Origin: Escherichia coli
GTDB taxonomy: Bacteria > Pseudomonadota > Gammaproteobacteria > Enterobacterales > Enterobacteriaceae
DNA length: 64,000 nucleotides
Direction: 5' to 3' (one strand)
Assembly (NCBI RefSeq): GCF_022846255.1
Contig: NZ_AP025682.1
Shown here piece by piece: positions 1,581 through 54,036 of this stretch. The notes beneath the pieces are model-generated. The model ran no database searches. It saw nothing but the letters and a program-made list of their open reading frames with translations, and was not told where the DNA came from. Position numbers and translations under genes: made by a program. Each line of letters starts with the position of its first letter. Within the stretch, counting starts at the first letter, position 1.

Positions 1581-3969
<2,389 letters not shown>

Positions 3970-4022
3970 TCTTTACGCCATTAACTTCTTAAATTCATAC
4001 GATGCAAAAGGCATCGCTACAA

Positions 4023-5090
4023 TTACGCCCGGGCAGCCCGGCTCACTTCATTTGCCACTCGCTCGGTGGCATCCGGAATGGATGCAGCGCGGGCGCGTTC
4101 TGCCATGGTTAATAAGGTTTCTCGCGACCACCCGGCCAGGGTGTTGGCGACAGCATCCACGCTAAGCTGTGACTGCTCGATAATTTTGGCAGCGCCCGCT
4201 TTTTCCAGCGGTAGCGCATTCCAGTATTGCTGACGGTCTTTATGTTGAAACGGCACAAACAACGCCGGTAGTCCTGCCGCGGCGATTTCACTCACCGTTA
4301 ACGCACCGGAGCGGCAAACGACGACATCCGCCCACGCATACGCCGCCGCCATATCATCAATAAATTCCGTCACTTTATGCTGCGGTTGCCCCGCTTCGGC
4401 ATATGCCTGTTCAACGGTTTGTTGCGAACCTTTGCCGCTCTGATGCCAGATAGTGACTGAATCACCCAGTTTCGCAGCAACCTGCGGCATTGTCTGGTTA
4501 AGAATGCGTGCGCCCTGGGAACCACCCACTACCAACACACGAACCGGACCTTCACGTCCAGCCAAACGTTGCTGCGGCAACGGCAGCGCCAGCACATCGG
4601 TACGCACCGGGTTACCCACCACTTCCGCATTAGGAAAAGCACCTGGAAACGCCTGCATCACTTTGGTAGCAATCTTCGCCAGCCATTTATTGGTTAAGCC
4701 CGCAATACCGTTTTGTTCATGAAGTACAACCGGAATGCCTAACGACCACGCGGCCAGACCACCTGGACCTGATACATAGCCGCCCATACCGAGCACCACG
4801 TCAGGTTTGTACGCTTTCATAATCGCCCGCGCCTGACGCCAGGCGTTGAAGATACGCAGCGGCGCAGCTATCAGTGCTTTTATACCTTTACCACGCAGAC
4901 CAGAGATACGAATGAAATCAATTTCGATGCCATGTTTTGGCACTAAGTCCGCTTCCATACGGTCGGCAGTCCCCAGCCAGCGAACTTGCCAACCCTGAGC
5001 CATTAGATGGTGCGCAACCGCCAGCCCCGGGAATACATGTCCACCGGTTCCGCCTGCCATCACCATTAATCGCTTCCCTTGACCACTCAT
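4023..5090 (-). CDS. murG: Lipid II N-acetylglucosaminyltransferase MurG
   Basis: Track ORF, 355 aa, [29 protein letters not shown]... Confidence 0.96.
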
Positions 5091-6331
5091 CGTGAACCTC
5101 GTACAAACGCCTGCGCTTTCTCCAGACGCGTTTCATAATCAATACGCAACAGCATCATGATGGCTGTCGACATAATCAGTAAGCTCGAACCACCGTAACT
5201 GATCAGCGGCAATGTCAGACCTTTGGTCGGTAACATCCCCGCCGCCGCGCCTACGTTAACCAGCGCCTGGAAACTAAACCAGATACCAATAGAACAGGCG
5301 AGAAAACCGGAAAAACGGTGGTCAATTTCTAATGCTTTGCGGCCAATCGACATCGCGCGAAAAGCGACGAAGAATACCATTAAAAGTGCCAGCACCACAC
5401 CGACATACCCCAGTTCTTCGCCGATAATGGCGAAAATAAAGTCAGTATGCGCTTCCGGCAGATACTCCAGTTTTTGTACCGAGTTACCTAAACCTTGTCC
5501 CCACAGTTCACCGCGACCAAACGCCATCAACGATTGCGTTAACTGATAGCCGCTGCCAAAGGGATCTTCCCACGGATTCCAGAATGCGGTAACACGGCGG
5601 ATACGGTACGGTTCGGCGAGGATCAGCAACACAACCGCTGAAATGCCCATACCGATAATGGCAATGAACTGCCACAATTTCGCTCCCGCCAGGAACAACA
5701 TCGCCAGCGTAGTCACAAACAACACCACCACCGTACCAAGGTCTGGCTGTGCCAGCAGTAACACTGCCAACACCAGAATTACGCCCATCGGTTTCAGGAA
5801 GCCGCGCAGGTTATTACGTACTTCGTCGCCTTTACGCACCAGATAGTTGGCGATATAGCAAAACAGCGACAGTTTTGTCAGCTCCGCAGGCTGAATACGC
5901 AGCAAACCGAGATCGATCCAACGCGATGCCCCTTTAACAGAGCTACCCACTACCAGAACGATCATCAACAGGATGATTGAACCGAGTAGCATCGTAGCGC
6001 TGTAACGTTGCCAGAACTCCATCGGCAGACGCAGCGTAATGATCGCCAGAATGAACGCCAGGATCAGGTAGACGCCATCACGCTTAGCGAAGAAAAAGGG
6101 ATCGTTAGTCAAGCGTTGTCCGATAGGCATTGATGCGGACGTCACCATGATAAAGCCGATCGCCGCGAGGCCGAAGGTCAGCCACAGTAAGGTGCGATCG
6201 TACATGATCAGGCTGTCGGTATCTTTTTCCCGCGAGCCCATCACCCAGCCCTTTAGCGCCGTGGAGATCCAGACCAGAATACTGAATCCTGGCAGGCGCG
6301 GCATTTTCAGGCGAGGAAGAGATAAACGCAT
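5087..6331 (-). CDS. ftsW: Peptidoglycan glycosyltransferase / lipid II flippase FtsW
   Basis: Track ORF 5087..6334 ([10 protein letters not shown]...); trimmed to second ATG to give the 414-aa FtsW start MRLSLPRLK; stop/start overlap with murD; multi-pass membrane protein. Confidence 0.93.
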
Positions 6332-7647
6332 CAACCTAACTCCTTCGCCAGACGGGCAAACTCATTGCCTCGTTGTTCAAAGTTCTTGAATTGATCAAGG
6401 CTGGCACAGGCCGGGGAGAGCAGAACCATATCTCCTGGTTGAACACGCGGAGCCAGCAAGCGCATCGCCTGTTCCATGGTTTCGGTTTGTTCTGCCACTT
6501 CCGGGCGCAGTGCCGCCAGCTGTGCGCCGTCACGACCGAAACAATACAAACGTACGTTATCGCCATTCAGGTAACGTGCCAGCGGACTAAAGTCCGCCGA
6601 TTTACCATCGCCGCCCAGCAACAAATGCAGCGTGCCATCTACGTGCAGGCCATTGAGCGCCGCTTCCGTACTGCCGACATTGGTCGCTTTCGAGTCGTTA
6701 ATCCAGCGCACACCGTTATGTTCCAGCACCACTTCAAAGCGATGCGGCAAACCAGTGAATGTAGTTAACGCTTTCAGGCTACTGGCGCGTGGCAAACCAG
6801 CTGCGTCTGCCAGCGCCAGTGCCGCCAGCGCATTGGTGTAGTTATGCTGACCGGAAAGCTTCATCTCTTTCACGTTCAACACTTTCTCGCCTTTCACCCG
6901 CAGCCAGGTTTCACCCTGCTGATGATTCAAGTGATAGTCGCCCATATTGATACCAAAGCTAACGCAGCGTTCATCCGCACCGCGAATCGGCATTGTTAAG
7001 GCATCATCAGCATTAACCACGCAAATTTTTGCGTTTTCGTAAATGCGCAGTTTTGCTGCACGATACTGTTGTAAACCAAACGGATAGCGATCCATATGAT
7101 CTTCTGTCACGTTCAGAATGGTCGCTGCCACCGCCTGTAAACTGGAGGTGGTTTCAAGCTGGAAGCTCGACAGCTCCAGCACGTACAGTTCGCACTCATC
7201 ATCCAGCAGCATCAACGCAGGCAGGCCAATATTGCCACCCACACCAACGTTAACCCCCGCCGCTTTCGCCATTTCACCCACTAGCGTGGTGACCGTGCTT
7301 TTGCCGTTAGAACCGGTGATCGCCACAATCGGTGCTTGTGCTTCGCGGCAGAATAGCTCGATATCGCCAACGATTTCGATTCCGGCATCAGCGGCAGCGC
7401 TTAAGGATGGATGCGCCAGTGCAATACCGGGACTGGCGACAATCAGATCGGCCGCCATCAGCCATTCATCATTCAGACCGCCCGTGTGGCGTTCTACGGC
7501 TTCGGGTAATTTATCCAGGCCAGGCGGTGTCATACGCGTATCCATAACGCGCGGCGTCACACCGCGAGCGAGGAAAAAGTCCACGCAAGAAAGCCCGGTG
7601 AGGCCCAGGCCGATAATGACGACATTTTTACCCTGGTAATCAGCCAT
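6331..7647 (-). CDS. murD: UDP-N-acetylmuramoylalanine--D-glutamate ligase
   Basis: Track ORF, 438 aa, [18 protein letters not shown]... Confidence 0.96.
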
Positions 7648-11568: not shown

Positions 11569-13321
11569 CTGTCCCCTCGCCTTGATTAATCACAAATTCA
11601 TTTTTATCGCCCGTTGTCAGCGCATCCGGTTCAATGTTCATGGTACGCAATACGCCGCCCATGATGGCACCAAAGACCGGCGCGGAAACGGCGCCGCCGT
11701 AGTATTTACCCGCCTGCGGATCGTTGATAACAACAACCAGCGCGAAGCGCGGCTGACTCGCAGGCGCAACGCCTGCGGTATAAGCAATATATTTATTGAT
11801 GTAGCGACCATCCGGCCCGACCTTTTTCGCGGTACCGGTTTTAATGGCGATACGATAGCCTTTAATCGCCGCCTTCACGCCGCCGCCGCCCGGTAGCGCC
11901 ACGCTTTCCATCATATGCACCACGGTGCGAACAATGGATTCCGGGAAGACTCGTTCACCGGGAACCGGGGGGTCAACTTTGGTAATCGACAGTGGGCGAT
12001 AAATGCCGTAGCTGCCGATAGTTGCGTAGACTCGCGCTAACTGTAACGGTGTTACCATTAGCCCGTAGCCGAAAGAGAAGGTGGCCCTCTCTATGTCAGA
12101 CCACCGTTGTTTTTGAGGATATAAGCCACTGCGTTCTCCGACCAACCCCAAATTGGTCGCTTTTCCCAGTCCAAAACGTGAGTAAGTATCTACTAACGCT
12201 GAGGACGGCATCGCTAACGCCAGCTTGGAAACACCGACGTTACTCGACTTCTGTAATACCCCGGTCAGGGTTAATTCGCTGTAGCGTGCCACGTCTTTGA
12301 TTTCGTGGCCGTTAATTCGATAAGGAACGGTATTCAGTACCGAGTTTTCCCGCACTACGCCACGTTGCAACGCGGTCATCACCACCATCGGTTTAACCGT
12401 TGAACCCGGTTCAAACACGTCAGTGATGGTACGGTTACGCATCGCCTCTTTCGGCGTGCCACTCAGATTGTTTGGGTTGTATGACGGGCTGTTAGCCATC
12501 GCCAGCACTTCACCGGTGTTGACATCCACCAGCACGGCGCTACCAGATTCAGCTTTGTTAAAGGCCACCGCGTTGTTCAGTTCGCGATAAACCAGCGCCT
12601 GCAGGCGTTCATCAATACTCAGCGCCAGGTTGTGCGCCGCCTGACTGTCGGTGGAAGAGATATCTTCAATTACGCGACCATAGCGGTCTTTACGCACAAT
12701 GCGCTCACCCGGCTGCCCGGTAAGCCATTTATCGAAACTCTTCTCGACACCCTCAATCCCTTGGCTATCGACGTTAGTAAAGCCGATGAGGTGAGCGGTC
12801 ACTTCGCCGGATGGATAATAACGGCGAGATTCTTCACGCAGATGAATCCCCGGCAGTTTCAGTTTTTTGATGTACTCTGCCATGTCAGGGTTTACCTGAC
12901 GCGCCAGATAAATAAAGCGCCCTTTCGGGTTGGCGTTAATGCGGGCTGAAAGCTGATCCAGCGGAATGTTGAGTGCGTTAGCCAGCGCCTTCCAGCGATC
13001 ACCGACGCTGATACCGCCAGCGTCATGCACTTCTTTCGGGTCAGCCCAAATCGCTTTAACCGGCACGCTCACCGCTAACGGGCGACCAGAACGGTCAGTA
13101 ATCATGCCGCGGGAGGTGGAAACTTGCTGAACGCGAAGAGAACGCATGTCGCCCTCTTTCACCAGCATATCCGGGGAGATAACTTGTAACCACGCTACGC
13201 GTCCGAGCAGAAAAGCCAGCGCCAGGAGAATACAGCCGCATAACAACGCAAAACGCCAACTGATAAAGTTGGCATGTTCTTCCTGACGTTTTGGTTTCTG
13301 CGTTTTCGCCGCTGCTTTCAT
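11555..13321 (-). CDS. ftsI: Peptidoglycan D,D-transpeptidase FtsI (PBP3)
   Basis: Track ORF, 588 aa; STVK and KTG penicillin-binding motifs present in translation. Confidence 0.96.
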
Positions 13322-20366: not shown

Positions 20367-21023
20367 ACTTAACTCCACTGTCACACTTAACTCCCTTTCC
20401 CTTATTGGAATGCAGAGAAATAATCCTCGAGAATATGATTTATCATGCATATAAAATAAGAAAAAGCAAAATGAGTAAAATTAGGAAAACATAAAGATAC
20501 AGGTTCTGATAAAAACAGAATCCACTGCCGAGCAAAGAGTTATTTACTACAGCATAATAATCCATAATGTTTTTGTTGCGAAAACAATCTAATCATAACT
20601 ACCACGAATACTCAATCATCCACAAAATGGATTAAATGTGCTTTTTAATAATTAATTTATATGTTTAATGCATTAATTCTTAACATTAATTGATCAATAA
20701 TATTCAGCAAATGAATATCAAAAAATTCGCAAAACATATAATTCAATACAAATCATCAAGATAGGTTTTGCAACGCGTGCATTTTATCCCCCTTTCCCTC
20801 GTTGATTAGATGCAAAAAATTATTCTGAAATATGTCAACCGATGAAAAGCATCGGCGGTTAAGCAGAAATTAATATCGCTTGTTTTAACCACCGCAGCAC
20901 AATTAGCTAATTTTACGGATGCCGAACTCACAATGGCGTGACGTTTTTATTGCTTCAGGGTTGACATCCGTTTTTGTATCCAGTAACTCTAAAAGCATAT
21001 CGCATTCATCTGGAGCTGATTTA

Positions 21024-21110
21024 ATGACTCACATCGTTCGCTTTATCGGTCTACTACTACTAAACGCATCTTCTTTGCGCGGTAGACGAGTGAGCGGCAT
21101 CCAGCATTAA
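21024..21110 (+). CDS. leuL: leu operon leader peptide (28 aa, four consecutive Leu codons)
   Basis: [28 protein letters not shown] is embedded at the end of track ORF 20919..21110; sits immediately upstream of the attenuator hairpin and leuA. Confidence 0.9.
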
Positions 21111-21130
21111 GCCAGCACGCAGTCAAACAA

Positions 21131-21159
21131 AAACCCGCGCCATTGCGCGGGTTTTTTTA
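21131..21159 (+). terminator. leu attenuator, rho-independent terminator
   Basis: AAACCCGCGCcattgCGCGGGTTT followed by a T-run, between leuL stop and leuA start. Confidence 0.85.
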
Positions 21160-23866: not shown

Positions 23867-25883
<2,017 letters not shown>

Positions 25884-25912
25884 TTTGTACACCGTCCGGC
25901 ACTCAATCGCCA

Positions 25913-26143
25913 AAAAGAAAAAAGCCAGCAGATAATCACTGCTGGCGTGGCGATTAACACCAATACTCAGTCACACATGATGTCCGCAAATCAGTAGTCA
26001 GAATGACTCCCCTCCCACTGCATCAGTTCTTCAAGCATGGTTAATCGTTGTGGGACGCTTAACCAACGCAACCAGCACAACTTCGCTATCGCGGTAAAAT
26101 AGTGCTGATAAAACTGACGCATGGGGCACCTCCTTGCTTCATC
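25913..26143 (-). ncRNA. sgrS: SgrS small RNA (glucose-phosphate stress); contains the sgrT ORF and a 3' hairpin plus U-tract terminator
   Basis: Minus strand begins GATGAAGCAAGG...; 3' region carries the GUGUGACUGAGUAUUGGUGU pairing segment and ends in GCCAGCAG...CUGCUGGC hairpin plus U-run; divergent from sgrR. Confidence 0.85.
25991..26122 (-). CDS. sgrT: SgrT small protein (43 aa) encoded within SgrS
   Basis: MRQFYQHYFTAIAKLCWLRWLSVPQRLTMLEELMQWEGSHSDY is the C-terminal part of track ORF 25991..26242; located inside the sgrS 5' region. Confidence 0.8.
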   Translation of the reverse strand: MRQFYQHYFTAIAKLCWLRWLSVPQRLTMLEELMQWEGSHSDY

Positions 26144-26210
26144 GTTAGGAATTATTGACTTAATATAGGGAAAATAAAATTGCTGTCTTTTGCGCAGGAG
26201 TTCCCCTTTT

Positions 26211-27866
26211 ATGCCATCTGCTCGTCTGCAACAACAGTTCATCCGCCTGTGGCAATGCTGCGAGGGTAAATCTCAGGAGACCACGCTCAACGAACTGGCA
26301 GCGTTACTGAGTTGCTCGCGTCGTCATATGCGCACCCTGCTCAACACCATGCAGGATCGCGGCTGGCTGACGTGGGAAGCGGAAGTCGGGCGCGGTAAAC
26401 GTTCACGCCTGACATTCCTCTATACCGGGCTGGCGCTTCAGCAACAGCGGGCGGAAGACCTGCTGGAGCAGGATCGTATCGACCAACTAGTGCAGTTGGT
26501 TGGCGACAAAGCGACTGTGCGGCAAATGCTGGTTTCTCATCTGGGCCGCAGCTTCCGCCAGGGGCGGCACATCCTGCGCGTGCTCTACTATCGTCCGTTG
26601 CGTAATCTGCTACCTGGCAGCGCATTGCGCCGTTCTGAAACCCATATCGCCCGGCAAATCTTCAGTTCGCTAACGCGCATAAATGAGGAAAATGGGGAAC
26701 TGGAAGCAGACATCGCACACCACTGGCAGCAAATATCACCGCTTCACTGGCGTTTCTTTTTGCGTCCAGGAGTCCATTTTCACCATGGTCGTGAACTGGA
26801 AATGGACGATGTGATCGCCTCTTTAAAACGAATCAATACGCTTCCGCTCTATTCGCATATTGCTAACATTGTGTCGCCGACGCCCTGGACGCTGGATATC
26901 CATCTCACGCAACCGGACCGCTGGTTGCCGTTACTGCTGGGGCAAGTTCCGGCAATGATCCTGCCGCGCGAATGGGAAACCCTCAGTAACTTTGCCAGCC
27001 ATCCCATCGGCACCGGTCCGTATGCGGTGATCCGCAACAGCACCAATCAACTGAAAATTCAGGCATTCGATGACTTCTTCGGTTACCGGGCATTAATCGA
27101 CGAAGTTAACGTCTGGGTTCTGCCGGAAATTGCCGACGAGCCAGCCGGAGGGCTGATGCTAAAAGGTCCACAGGGCGAGGAAAAAGAGATTGAAAGCCGC
27201 CTGGAGGAAGGTTGCTACTATTTACTGTTCGACAGCCGCACCCATCGAGGGGCGAATCAGCAAGTCAGAGACTGGGTAAGCTATGTGCTTTCTCCGACGA
27301 ATCTGGTCTATTTCGCTGAGGAACAGTACCAGCAACTGTGGTTCCCGGCTTATGGACTGCTCCCCCGTTGGCACCATGCCCGCACCATAAAGAGCGAAAA
27401 ACCGGCTGGTCTGGAAAGCCTCACCCTGACCTTTTATCAGGATCACAGCGAGCATCGGGTGATTGCCGGGATCATGCAGCAGATTCTGGCAAGTCACCAG
27501 GTCACGCTGGAAATCAAAGAGATCAGCTACGATCAGTGGCATGAAGGAGAGATCGAGAGCGATATCTGGCTTAACAGCGCCAACTTTACGCTGCCGCTGG
27601 ATTTTTCGCTGTTCGCGCACTTGTGCGAGGTGCCGCTGCTCCAACACTGTATTCCGATCGACTGGCAAGCCGACGCCGCCCGCTGGCGCAATGGCGAAAT
27701 GAACCTGGCGAACTGGTGCCAGCAACTGGTCGCCAGCAAAGCAATGGTGCCACTTATCCACCACTGGCTGATCATTCAGGGGCAACGTAGTATGCGCGGC
27801 CTGCGCATGAACACCCTCGGCTGGTTCGATTTTAAATCAGCGTGGTTTGCACCACCGGATCCATGA
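26211..27866 (+). CDS. sgrR: Transcriptional regulator SgrR
   Basis: Track ORF 26190..27866 trimmed to [22 protein letters not shown]... (551 aa). Confidence 0.93.
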
Positions 27867-27894
27867 TTGCTGGTTGATAACAAAATCACTACAC

Positions 27895-28005
27895 TAACGC
27901 CGTTCTCAACGGGGTGCCACGCAGCCGCGTGCGCTGAGAAAATACCCGTCGAACCTGATCCGGATAACGCCGGCGAAGGGATTTGAGGCTCCTTCTCAAG
28001 TCCTT
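27895..28005 (+). promoter_or_regulatory. TPP (thi-box) riboswitch in the thiBPQ leader (corresponds to SroA)
   Basis: CUGAGA ... ACCUGAUCCGGAUAACGCCGGCGAAGGGA thi-box elements read directly, immediately upstream of thiB. Confidence 0.85.
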
Positions 28006-28029
28006 TGCCACTCTTTTGTGAGGTGCAAA

Positions 28030-32292: not shown

Positions 32293-32313
32293 ACAAAAGA
32301 CACCCTCTGCCTA

Positions 32314-32736
32314 TCATTCGATAGTCTCAAAATATTCCACCTGCAGAGAATCACGGTGCTCAATGATGCAATAACGCTGGAAATTATTTGCATAATCACT
32401 TTTATCATGAAAAAACCATATACAATCGTTTTGTAGACTCGGTCCCATTCTTTTCAAAAAATCTATTAGCTTTGCTTTCTGAAGAAAAATGTTATCTATA
32501 TTTCGCCATGTAACAATCACTCTTGTTTGCATATCATCAACATTATAGTAATAGCTATACTCGGCTACGTTTGATATGTTTGGCAAATTTCGCAAACTCT
32601 CTGGCGTATAAAGGAAAAATGGGGAAAGTTCATGCTGTGTATAGTGATGTTCCTTTGACATCAATGAGATATAAGCATAGAAAAATATAAAGAATAAAAC
32701 TAAAAATGATAATAAAATATAAATATATTTTGACAT
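32314..32736 (-). CDS. Hypothetical membrane-anchored protein, 140 aa (insertion gene B; candidate partner/immunity protein)
   Basis: Track ORF; N-terminal about 21-residue hydrophobic segment YIYILLSFLVLFFIFFYAYISL; ATG 6 nt after the gene A stop (translational coupling); AT-rich codon usage. Confidence 0.7.
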   Translation of the reverse strand: MSKYIYILLSFLVLFFIFFYAYISLMSKEHHYTQHELSPFFLYTPESLRNLPNISNVAEYSYYYNVDDMQTRVIVTWRNIDNIFLQKAKLIDFLKRMGPSLQNDCIWFFHDKSDYANNFQRYCIIEHRDSLQVEYFETIE

Positions 32737-32742
32737 CTCTAC

Positions 32743-33591
32743 TCACGACCTGTGCGGATAATGAGGGTTTAAGAAAAGAAAAAGCGGTCTTTCAAAGGGA
32801 GATTCTGAAAACTTTATAGCTCCCGAACTTGATAATGAACTATACAACTCATGATTTATTCTGTTTTTATCTTTATAATAATTAGTAACAGGTCTATTAT
32901 TATATTGATTATATAACAATGTTGAAAAAGACTCATCTAATGGCTTTATATAATTTAACCATTCTGGAAGCTTCTTTTTTATTAGTTGATTTTTTTTAAA
33001 AGGAGGATGGGTTGTAAATAAGAATGGCGTAAACTCAGTATTTTTAAAATTCCCTGGCGCTCCATATGTATCCCATATTTGTAAGGCTTTTGTGTAAGAT
33101 AAAGGTTTTGCCAATAAAAGTGGATCGGGGCCTGTTCCAAATACACGATAAAAACCAATCAAGTCTGAGACTAAATCTTCTGCACTAAATCCGCTATCAG
33201 TATACCAGTTAAAAATAAATGAGTTTTGCCATGCTTCAAACCTCTTCGCAGTTCCATACATTAACGTTAAGGCAACTCTTGCTTTAAGAGTGGGTGAAAG
33301 ACATGAACGAACCATAACCTTCGTATAAACACCGGTATGAAATGTAAGATCTACTCCTAATATTTTTTTCCGAATTCCCATTTCCTGATGATAATCAACA
33401 GGAAAATACCAATCATGAAATTCATCGTAATATGTTGAAAAATGTTCTTGCTCCAATTTTCTTTTTAATATTCTGGCATCTTGTCCCTGAGCATGCCCCA
33501 AATCGATCCAACCTAACTCTTCGGTATAAACTAATCCATACTTTTTCGTTGTTGCAAATATTCCATCAGTAATATCGTTACGTTTTCTCAT
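32743..33591 (-). CDS. Hypothetical protein, 282 aa (insertion gene A), no family recognised
   Basis: Track ORF 32743..33594 (GTG) trimmed to adjacent ATG; strong Shine-Dalgarno GAGGGGAG 6 nt upstream; no signal peptide or TM segment; Asn/Tyr/Lys/Ser-rich C-terminal third. Confidence 0.7.
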   Translation of the reverse strand: MRKRNDITDGIFATTKKYGLVYTEELGWIDLGHAQGQDARILKRKLEQEHFSTYYDEFHDWYFPVDYHQEMGIRKKILGVDLTFHTGVYTKVMVRSCLSPTLKARVALTLMYGTAKRFEAWQNSFIFNWYTDSGFSAEDLVSDLIGFYRVFGTGPDPLLLAKPLSYTKALQIWDTYGAPGNFKNTEFTPFLFTTHPPFKKNQLIKKKLPEWLNYIKPLDESFSTLLYNQYNNRPVTNYYKDKNRINHELYSSLSSSGAIKFSESPFERPLFLFLNPHYPHRS

Positions 33592-34070
33592 CACAATCTC
33601 CCCTCAAAAAAAACGTATAGCAAATAATATCAATAAGGAAAAATATTATTTTTCAATATTTTTTTGTATACAATTCATTTTATGAATGAATTTACAAAGA
33701 TAGCTGCGCCTGATGCCGCTACACTTTTGCCAGACCATGTTCTCCTCTGAGGGAGTAACTGGCGTTTTTCATAGAATGCCGTACTTTTTTCAACAACTGC
33801 CACATCGAACGGCATTTATGGTGGCGTGAAGTGCCTGCCATAACCGCTCAATGTGGTGTTCCTACGATGAACAAACCGCTTGATATATTCTCCTGATGCA
33901 ACCGGACAATATGTTCATGATGGGTATCCCGATACATAAGCCTTCGTTTTATTTTTACAAAAAGAAATCGTTGTCGATATTTTATCAAGAAAAAAAATAA
34001 TTCAGGTAAAACGATTCAACTAAAAATAACTAAAATTAATCCCCCGTGAAATATATAAATAACGTCAGAT

Positions 34071-34104
34071 GAAGAAAGCAAGGGGGTTCCCCCCCTTCTT
34101 TCTT
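34071..34104. terminator. Near-palindromic G5/C7 hairpin immediately 3' of the truncated araC stop (candidate terminator, possibly bidirectional)
   Basis: GAAGAAAGCAAGGGGGTTCCCCCCCTTCTTTCTT read directly; followed by a T-rich tract on the plus strand. Confidence 0.45.
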
Positions 34105-38503: not shown

Positions 38504-38525
38504 GTAGCCGCATCAGGTATGTAAC

Positions 38526-38689
38526 GCCTGATGCGACGCTGACGCGTCTTATCAGGCCTACACGCTGCGATTTTGTAGGCCGGATAAGCAAAGCGCATCC
38601 GGCATTCACCGCCTGATGCGACGCCGACGCGTCTTATCAGGCCTACACGCTGCGATTTTGTAGGCCGGATAAGCAAAGCGCATCCGGCA
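38526..38689. repeat. Tandem BIME: two copies of a 79-bp unit, each containing two REP palindromes, in the araA-araD spacer
   Basis: Unit GCCTGATGCGACGC(T/C)GACGCGTCTTATCAGGCCTACACGCTGCGATTTTGTAGGCCGGATAAGCAAAGCGCATCCGGCA at 38526-38604 and 38611-38689 (1 mismatch). Confidence 0.85.
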
Positions 38690-45566: not shown

Positions 45567-45589
45567 TAGTCACGCTGGCGAAGTTCGAT

Positions 45590-45680
45590 AGGCCGGAGAA
45601 GGCGTTCACGCCGCATCCGGCAATTTTGCGCCGATTGCCTGATGCGACGCGGGCCGCGTCTTATCAGGCCTACACGTTGA
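45590..45680. repeat. REP palindromes between convergent rluA and djlA
   Basis: GGCGTTCACGCCGCATCCGGCA and GCCTGATGCGACGCGGGCCGCGTCTTATCAGGCCTAC motifs. Confidence 0.75.
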
Positions 45681-45683
45681 AAC

Positions 45684-46499
45684 TTATTTAAACCCTTTCT
45701 GCTGCTTTATCAGCTCATAGGCCTGCTGAATTTCCTGCGCTTTCTGCTTCGCCATCTCCATCATCTCTGGCGGCAAACCTTTCGCCACCAACTTATCGGG
45801 ATGGTGTTCACTCATCAGCTTACGGTAGGCACGTTTGATGGTGGTCGCATCATCCGTCGGCTTCACGCCCAGCACATTACAGGCATCTTCCAGCGTCGGG
45901 CCACGCTGCGCTTGCTGCCAGTTACCACCGCCAGATTGCTGCTGATAACCGCCGCCAAACTGTGCACCGCCCTGCATCATGCGCAAAAACTGGTCAAACT
46001 GGGCGCGGGAGATGCCTAACTCTTCGGCAATGACATACAGCACCGCCCGTTCATTCGGGTGCAGTGAACCATCAGCAAACGCCGCCTGAATCTGGATCTC
46101 CAGAAACATACGAATTAAGTCAAAACGACCAAAGCAGACACTGCGAAACTGGCGCATCTTTTCGCGCAGCGGGTAATTGTCTGATTTTCCCACCCGGAAT
46201 GCATTTTGCGCCGCAGTACGGGAAGCGCCATGCAGATTCATTCGGTCCATCAACTGACTGGCGATATGAATATCAGCCTCCGTGACGCGACCTTTGGATT
46301 TGGTTAAATGGCCCATCACTTCAAAAGTGGTGGCAAAAAACAGCGCCTGACGCTCACGCTGGTTGGCGAACCACGCCATTTTACGGCTACGGGCTTTATC
46401 AAACATATGGCCAATTAACAGGCCCAATACTACGCCCCAAAAGCCGCCGCCCATTATTAAGGCCACGGCCACGCCAATGATTTTTCCCCAATACTGCAT
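45684..46499 (-). CDS. djlA: DnaJ-like co-chaperone DjlA
   Basis: Track ORF 45684..46592 trimmed to [22 protein letters not shown]... (271 aa); C-terminal J-domain (HPD). Confidence 0.92.
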
Positions 46500-52640: not shown

Positions 52641-53489
52641 ATGGCGACATACCTTATTGGCGACGTTCATGGTTGTTACGATGAACTGATCGCATTGCTG
52701 CATAAAGTAGAATTTACCCCTGGGAAAGATACCCTCTGGCTGACGGGCGATCTGGTCGCGCGCGGCCCGGGTTCGCTGGATGTTCTGCGCTATGTGAAAT
52801 CCTTAGGCGACAGCGTACGTCTGGTGCTGGGTAATCACGATCTGCATCTGCTGGCGGTATTTGCCGGGATCAGCCGCAATAAACCGAAAGATCGCCTGAC
52901 ACCGCTGCTGGAAGCGCCGGATGCCGACGAGCTGCTTAACTGGCTGCGTCGCCAGCCTTTGCTGCAAATCGACGAAGAGAAAAAGTTGGTGATGGCCCAC
53001 GCAGGGATCACGCCGCAGTGGGATCTGCAGACCGCCAAAGAGTGCGCGCGCGATGTAGAAGCGGTGCTGTCGAGTGACTCCTATCCCTTCTTCCTTGATG
53101 CCATGTACGGCGATATGCCAAATAACTGGTCACCGGAATTGCGGGGGCTGGGAAGACTGCGTTTTATCACCAACGCCTTTACCCGTATGCGTTTTTGCTT
53201 CCCGAACGGTCAACTGGATATGTACAGCAAAGAATCGCCGGAAGAGGCCCCTGCCCCACTGAAACCGTGGTTTGCGATTCCTGGCCCCGTTGCTGAAGAG
53301 TACAACATCGCCTTTGGTCACTGGGCATCGCTGGAAGGCAAAGGTACGCCGGAAGGTATTTACGCGCTGGATACCGGCTGCTGCTGGGGTGGTACATTAA
53401 CCTGCCTGCGCTGGGAAGATAAACAGTATTTTGTCCAGCCGTCGAACCGGCATAAGGATTTGAGTGAGGGAGAGGCGGTAGCGTCTTAA
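52641..53489 (+). CDS. apaH: Bis(5'-nucleosyl)-tetraphosphatase (symmetrical) ApaH
   Basis: Track ORF, 282 aa, [20 protein letters not shown]...; metallophosphatase motifs GDxHG, GNHD. Confidence 0.96.
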
Positions 53490-53800
53490 ATCCCGTCGAG
53501 CATAAAATCTAATGCTCCTTTAATCAACGTTCGGTGCGCGCTGGCATCGCAAAATTTCGTTCCCAGCGCGTTAACTGGAACAGTTGCAGTCTCATGCGTC
53601 ATGAGCACATATTCTTTGCCGTCTACCAGTAAAAGGATTGGGTTAAGCCGTTCTGGTGGGCGAATACGGCTAAATCGTTCAATAGGTGTTAATGGAATAA
53701 CGATACGGCGATTAATCTCACCAATAATGTCGCTGGTAACATCAATAACAAAGGGAAACGCGGCGTTCCTGCCGCGACTGCGGTATACCGTAAATTGCAT
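53486..53800 (-). CDS. ccdB: CcdB-family toxin (gyrase poison), chromosomal copy
   Basis: Track ORF, 104 aa; MQFTVY..., [16 protein letters not shown] and C-terminal FMLDGI align with F-plasmid CcdB landmarks; 4-nt convergent overlap with apaH stop. Confidence 0.88.
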
Positions 53801-53802
53801 CG

Positions 53803-54036
53803 CTAGAAGCTCCGGTACTCATCAGAGAAACATCCGGTTTCATCAGCCAATTGATTTAACGCAGCGATAGCTTCTGCGTTCTCTTCACGCCAACGTGTTG
53901 CTGCATGTTTTTTAAGTTCAGCATTGAGCGCAACCGTAAGGGTGGCGCTCATATTTAAGCCTGCATCACGAGCGCGATTGACTAACTCACGGTCGACGGT
54001 GACGGTCACACTTTGTGTGGTACGTTTTGCAGTCAT
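53803..54036 (-). CDS. ccdA: CcdA-family antitoxin, chromosomal copy
   Basis: Track ORF, 77 aa; VTVTVD, RWREENAEA and C-terminal SDEYRSF align with F-plasmid CcdA; immediately upstream of ccdB. Confidence 0.88.
   Translation of the reverse strand: MTAKRTTQSVTVTVDRELVNRARDAGLNMSATLTVALNAELKKHAATRWREENAEAIAALNQLADETGCFSDEYRSF

Follow-up and report, generated by a model that had tools for sequence, protein, structure and literature searches.

How a strain of Escherichia coli comes to have leuD and sgrS almost abutting, when in K-12 the two genes are separated by setA, is the question raised by the stretch of DNA analysed here (64 kb, hereafter the window). The K-12 MG1655 record places sgrS at 77367-77593, setA at 77621-78799 and leuD at 78848-79453, an order that the original prediction had given correctly, and the 1,254 bp that separate sgrS from leuD are made up of 48 bp, the 1,179 bp of setA and a further 27 bp. 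In the window this interval is replaced by a spacer of 33 bp (25884..25916). A search by tblastn with K-12 SetA yielded no match in the 64 kb, so that no SetA orthologue of the SET family was found in the window and the predicted absence of setA from the junction was borne out. The gap had been put at about 30-40 bp, in agreement with the distances measured from the leuD stop at 25883, namely 28 bp to the U-tract of the sgrS terminator, 33 bp to the SgrS 3' end and 40 bp to the base of the terminator hairpin. The absence of setA is a structural difference established by alignment and not a statistical pattern, and a chance expectation is inapplicable to it. The window is part of an E. coli chromosome and corresponds, in reverse complement and with 96-98% identity, to about 40.4-104.7 kb of K-12 MG1655; an origin outside E. 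coli was ruled out by identities of 96-99% to E. coli references.

The genes on either side of the spacer are complete. The last gene of leuLABCD, leuD (25278..25883, + strand), terminates in a TAG codon at 25881-25883, and an Rfam Leu_leader is present ahead of leuABCD at 21010-21158 (+). The small RNA gene sgrS (25917..26143, - strand) is full length, with positions 1-232 of the SgrS covariance model (RF00534) matched on the - strand at 226.6 bits (E 2.4e-64; gathering score 37). Its intrinsic terminator (25912..25946, -) consists of a GC-rich stem of 8 bp at 25924-25946, six pairs of which are GC, followed by UUUUUUCUUU; the complete terminator tail on the RNA, from 25923 down to 25912, reads UUUUUUCUUUUU. 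Stem and U-rich tail together fit the predicted Hfq-binding module of SgrS. The base-pairing (seed) region is located at 25957..25982 (-; ACACCAATACTCAGTCACACATGATG on the + strand), within the conserved ptsG-pairing region near the SgrS 3' end, and this stretch of 26 nt is the same as in K-12; ptsG itself lies outside the window, and the seed was judged by identity to K-12 alone. As expected of a dual-function SgrS, sgrT (25991..26122, -) was found 5' of the seed, comprising 43 codons and a stop (MRQFYQHYFTAIAKLCWLRWLSVPQRLTMLEELMQWEGSHSDY) with an ATG at 26122 preceded by a Shine-Dalgarno sequence. A promoter-like site, identified as a consensus match only, is situated upstream of the sgrS 5' end at 26162..26189 (-). 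From its 5' end at 26143, sgrS is transcribed divergently from sgrR (26211..27866, +), which is intact, encodes 551 aa and has 96.3% nucleotide identity to K-12; the intergenic region between the two is 98% identical. Beyond sgrR lies a TPP riboswitch (27900-27999), with thiBPQ after it.

Apart from the missing setA, the arrangement resembles that of K-12, with sgrR divergent from sgrS, the same seed, a 43-codon sgrT, an intrinsic terminator, a convergent leuD and the same thiBPQ and leuLABCD flanks. Smaller differences were evident within these elements. The tail of the sgrS terminator in the window is 6U+C+5U, where 6U+C is a Citrobacter-like form, as opposed to 8U in K-12; sgrT is preceded by GGAGG as its Shine-Dalgarno sequence in place of GGGGG; and LeuD terminates in ...QPAFMR, as in Citrobacter and Salmonella, and not in ...QPAFMN. 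SgrT had been noted to differ from the K-12 protein, and 8 of its 43 residues do so (T12I, G32E and a C-terminal EGSHSDY against DDRNSES), giving 81% identity; T12I is the one difference from the protein of CFT073 and IAI39. Judged by sequence, the SgrR-SgrS-SgrT module of the glucose-phosphate stress response is intact and the SetA efflux-pump arm alone is missing.

The passages of PMC4509938 and PMC9765468 that cite Sun & Vanderpool (2011) describe setA as co-transcribed with sgrS through read-through of the sgrS terminator, under the control of SgrR. No operon of the K-12 type is present in the window, where no setA follows on the same strand within approximately 30 bp of the sgrS terminator; with a convergent leuD 33 bp past the SgrS 3' end the read-through arrangement is impossible, as originally proposed. 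Read-through of the sgrS terminator would run antisense into leuD in place of making setA mRNA. In the opposite direction, a hairpin lies between leuD and setA in the outgroups and in K-12; no hairpin of this type was found in the window, and no terminator-like site was called on its + strand after leuD. The sgrS hairpin does not have the U-tract on both strands that characterises a bidirectional intrinsic terminator: on the + strand it is followed by GUGGCGAUUAAC, with no U-tract, and the U-tract occurs on the - strand only. An outer inverted repeat of 7 bp, AATCGCC (25905-25911) and GGCGATT (25950-25956), brackets the terminator hairpin, and its pairing on the + strand is kept in E. albertii through a G-U pair. 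Reading these features together, leuLABCD may be without an intrinsic terminator of its own, leu read-through could yield RNA antisense to sgrS and sgrT, thereby coupling leucine biosynthesis to glucose-phosphate stress by convergent transcription, and the repeat could form a stem that stabilises the 3' end of leu mRNA; this scenario is considered quite improbable.

The setA-less junction is not confined to the strain from which the window derives. When 5,426 complete RefSeq E. coli genomes were surveyed with window 25600-26250 as the junction query, some match to the locus was obtained in 5,399. The query matched as one contiguous piece in 2,159 genomes, E2348/69, O157:H7 and an ST38 strain among them; in the remainder the match was broken in two at the junction. 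By megablast, K-12 setA was detected in 3,241 of the 5,426, in a single copy in every case bar one genome with two, and 3,228 of these were at least 99% identical to the K-12 gene. The sum of the two classes, 5,400, compared with 5,399 locus-matching genomes indicates that the setA-plus and setA-less states are complementary. For the 2,182 genomes without setA, sensitive blastn returned as its best match a stretch of approximately 150 bp of the paralogue setB at 72-73% identity. Since only setB, which is retained in essentially all E. coli, was matched in these genomes, setA has not been relocated within them; the search for a copy elsewhere that the original prediction had suggested thus found none among genomes with the setA-less junction. 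A recent strain-specific deletion, an assembly artefact or a relocation of setA would each account for the bare absence of the gene from the window, the sole observation that speaks for them. The recurrence of the same junction in 2,159 complete genomes and in three other species argues against the first two, the finding of setB but no setA-like DNA in setA-less genomes against the third, and the probability left to them is negligible.

Annotation of RefSeq genomes is in agreement with the survey. In CFT073 (B2), IAI39 (F) and Sakai (E), all of which are without setA, leuD adjoins sgrT or sgrR, and the setA-less arrangement is annotated in more than 2,000 RefSeq genomes. The survey of phylogroups that had been proposed shows the setA-less allele to be the standard one in E. 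coli outside A and B1. Across some 16 kb the identity to CFT073 amounted to 99.1%, compared with 96.3-96.8% for IAI39, Sakai and K-12, which indicates that the window is B2-like. CFT073, O157:H7 Sakai and IAI39 have the same setA-less junction as the window and differ from it in detail, CFT073 by a copy of IS200C in the A-run of the junction, and IAI39 and Sakai by espY2 between thiB and sgrR. The IS200C copy (3935-4643 of the CFT073 locus, L084; corresponding approximately to window 25918-25923) sits in the A-run that encodes the sgrS U-tract, and six U are left after the stem. The type III secretion effector gene espY2 occupies 12049-13087 of the IAI39 locus (L085) and 6302-7470 of the Sakai locus (L086), and is lacking in the window (27867-28017), CFT073 and K-12.

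The polymorphism of setA in E. coli, with the setA-less state in about 40% of genomes, has already been published. SetA was listed among the genes belonging to the A/B1 sublineage by González-Alba et al. (2019, PMC6896753), and Fig. 2 of Horler & Vanderpool (2009, PMC2760817), a comparison of synteny around SgrS, includes setA; a passage of the latter article gives the identity of SgrS between K-12 and CFT073 or O157 as 88%.

Searching a collection of species-representative genomes with the SgrR of the window recovered 80 loci, 76 from outside Escherichia and four from within it; as the 80 did not include E. fergusonii, E. marmotae, E. ruysiae or the representative of E. coli, the map of alleles in the genus is incomplete. 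All 76 non-Escherichia loci possess a setA gene directly after the sgrS terminator, encoding a protein with 75-91% amino-acid identity to K-12 SetA, and throughout the scan setA was convergent with leuD wherever leuD was within reach. The genera concerned include Citrobacter, Salmonella (arizonae, diarizonae), Enterobacter, Klebsiella, Raoultella, Kluyvera, Leclercia, Lelliottia, Trabulsiella, Atlantibacter and Buttiauxella, among others. Split tblastn matches to setA were obtained in C. amalonaticus (L007) and Trabulsiella odontotermitis (L030), where the copies may be pseudogenes. An Enterobacter-like sgrR-sgrS-setA-leuD locus was also recovered from an assembly labelled Chryseobacterium sp. 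18061 (L032), which is probably mislabelled or contaminated.

These loci bear on the proposal that the site was ancestrally empty, with setA purely a gain of A and B1 and the ancestry of the window never having had it. The empty site in phylogroups B2, D, E and F would be expected on that proposal, as would the description of SetA as 'acquired' by the A/B1 sublineage (PMC6896753). The occurrence of setA at exactly the same position in 76 of 76 loci outside the genus, convergent with leuD and after the sgrS terminator, indicates on the contrary that the empty site is derived at the level of the family, and a pure gain is regarded as very unlikely.

Within Escherichia, setA was present in Escherichia sp. 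MOD1-EC7003, with 99% amino-acid identity to K-12, and absent from the locus in E. albertii, E. whittamii and Escherichia sp. E1V33. The junction in the latter three is that of the window, ...TTTATGCGTTAG TTTGTACRCCGYCCG..CTCAATCGYC AAAAAGAAAAAA GCCAGCAG..., the spacer differing from that of the window by 2-5 substitutions or a 1-bp indel. Identity to the window is 96% in the 3' part of sgrS, and in the flanks the divergence is at the level of species (sgrR 88-91%, last 100 bp of leuD 89-93%). The presence of the same scar in four species points to a single event, and the presence of setA throughout the family identifies that event as a deletion. The spacer has diverged between species about as much as the flanking genes, which suggests that the setA-less allele is old and has not spread recently. 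Comparison of the spacer with 42 leuD-setA and 75 setA-sgrS intergenic regions of the outgroups gave local alignments 1.5-3 sd above shuffles, the best being CCGTCCGGCACT with CCATCCGGCACT, an arm of the Citrobacter hairpin, and GCCAAAAAGAAAAAA with GCCAAAACGAAAAAA. As these scores scarcely rise, if at all, above those of the shuffled sequences, end points of the deletion are not claimed.

Taken together, these data make it highly probable that the window carries an inherited setA-less allele produced by one old deletion; A/B1 most likely regained the gene. The ancestral Enterobacteriaceae arrangement would have had setA directly downstream of sgrS. Early in the history of Escherichia a single deletion, about 1.2 kb in length, would then have removed the whole of setA together with its ribosome-binding site, and probably also the hairpin between the convergent leuD and setA, leaving the allele now carried by E. 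albertii, E. whittamii, E1V33 and, within E. coli, by phylogroups that include B2, D, E and F. Strains of A/B1, including K-12, would have regained setA at its original site when the interval was replaced by homologous recombination with that of another Escherichia lineage. Such an exchange, which may have run in either direction, is the most likely route. The assignment of setA to the A/B1 sublineage (PMC6896753) provides independent support.

A replacement of this kind is consistent with the pattern of divergence around the indel. Identity between the window and K-12 falls to 76-77% in the last approximately 80 bp of leuD beside the indel, compared with 96-98% further out, and on the other side about 75 bp of the sgrS 3' part are at 76% and the next 200 bp still at 93%, so that identity recovers within a few hundred bases. 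K-12 and MOD1-EC7003, on the other hand, are mostly 96-99% identical across roughly 25008-26386 and setA (one 200-bp interval is at 93.5%), and only 91-94% identical beyond these limits. The allele of the K-12 type, which is 98-99% identical to that of MOD1-EC7003 and which A/B1 shares with it, is a haplotype that diverges deeply from that of the window. Beside the indel it is the window type that is more outgroup-like: the LeuD ending FMR is found in the window, Citrobacter, Salmonella and Kluyvera, and FMN in K-12 and MOD1-EC7003, and the 3' 130 nt of sgrS are 84-86% identical to Citrobacter in the window type and 77-78% in the K-12 type. K-12 setA is on a long branch, with 76.5-78.6% identity to the Citrobacter and Salmonella genes as against 82-84% between these two, and its relatives are still ranked as in the species tree. 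With regard to a possible donor, no E. coli genome was more than 98.1% identical to the MOD1-EC7003 allele.

Two further patches of unusual similarity were observed in the vicinity. From the 3' end of leuC to the 5' end of leuD (25008-25407) the window is the odd sequence, 92-94% identical to K-12, MOD1-EC7003 and E. albertii, which are mutually 96-99% identical, and has a divergent patch of its own. At the 3' end of sgrR (27500-27800) K-12 is the outlier: the window is 82-91% identical to it, as against about 93% to both MOD1-EC7003 and E. albertii, and a further small patch of recombination is suggested. The locus is thus a recombination mosaic, and a simple tree-like reading of it is weakened accordingly.

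The depth of the haplotype split is also what would be expected had both alleles been segregating in Escherichia since the deletion, setA having been passed down in A/B1 and the deletion allele having spread to the other phylogroups and species by homologous recombination. The divergence beside the indel (76-77%) exceeds that between E. coli and E. albertii within the setA-less allele (87-97%), the visible mosaicism of the locus fits a trans-species polymorphism, and the ranking of K-12 setA, nearest to Citrobacter and then Salmonella, with Klebsiella and Enterobacter further away, fits a long residence in an Escherichia-like lineage. In the E. coli phylogeny, phylogroups A and B1 together make up a derived clade that is nested within the species. 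Retention would consequently require setA to have been replaced by the deletion allele separately in E, D, F and B2. Moreover, the near-uniformity of setA across the 3,241 genomes that carry it fits one recent origin, and the gain of setA has been reconstructed on the A/B1 branch (PMC6896753). Both the retention of setA in A/B1 and the spread of the deletion allele are judged unlikely, though less so than the alternatives considered above; loss through an old deletion followed by regain in A/B1 is preferred.

The published studies of the sgrS-setA read-through operon and of attenuation at the sgrS terminator (PMC4509938, PMC9765468) describe K-12 and other A/B1 strains, and about 40% of sequenced E. 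coli, uropathogenic, enteropathogenic and O157 strains included, are without the SetA arm of the glucose-phosphate stress response. Because setA occupies a position that is ancestral and family-wide, the term 'acquired' as published for A/B1 setA needs qualifying, in that an old haplotype was regained or retained and not a new gene gained. What is added here concerns polarity only, namely that setA is ancestral at the site, that one old deletion extends across Escherichia species and that the A/B1 haplotype is divergent. Neither this caution nor the point of polarity alters the understanding of the system.

Other differences from K-12 were observed elsewhere in the window. An insert of about 1.8 kb (32299-34101) separates yabI from the 3' end of araC, with an overlap of approximately 25 bp at the joints. 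The insert contains two ORFs (32314-32736 and 32743-33594, both -) without a Pfam match; it is present in 486 of the 5,426 complete genomes, including IAI39, and a degraded fragment of an IS630-family transposase is found within it in matching genomes. In the intergenic region of araD and araA (38509-38689), overlapping blast matches offset by 85 bp reveal a tandem repeat of approximately 85 bp, the copy number of which is unlike that of K-12. The yabP-yabQ segment of K-12 (about 1.5 kb, K-12 58.2-59.7 kb) is missing, and in its place about 120 bp of REP-like palindromic sequence is located between rluA and djlA (45567-45685). Finally, a ccdB gene (104 aa, PF01845, E 6e-32) and a ccdA gene (77 aa, PF07362, E 1e-26) lie between apaH and folA at 53486-54036, where K-12 has no chromosomal ccdA/ccdB toxin-antitoxin pair; we take this pair to be the known ccdO157 locus.
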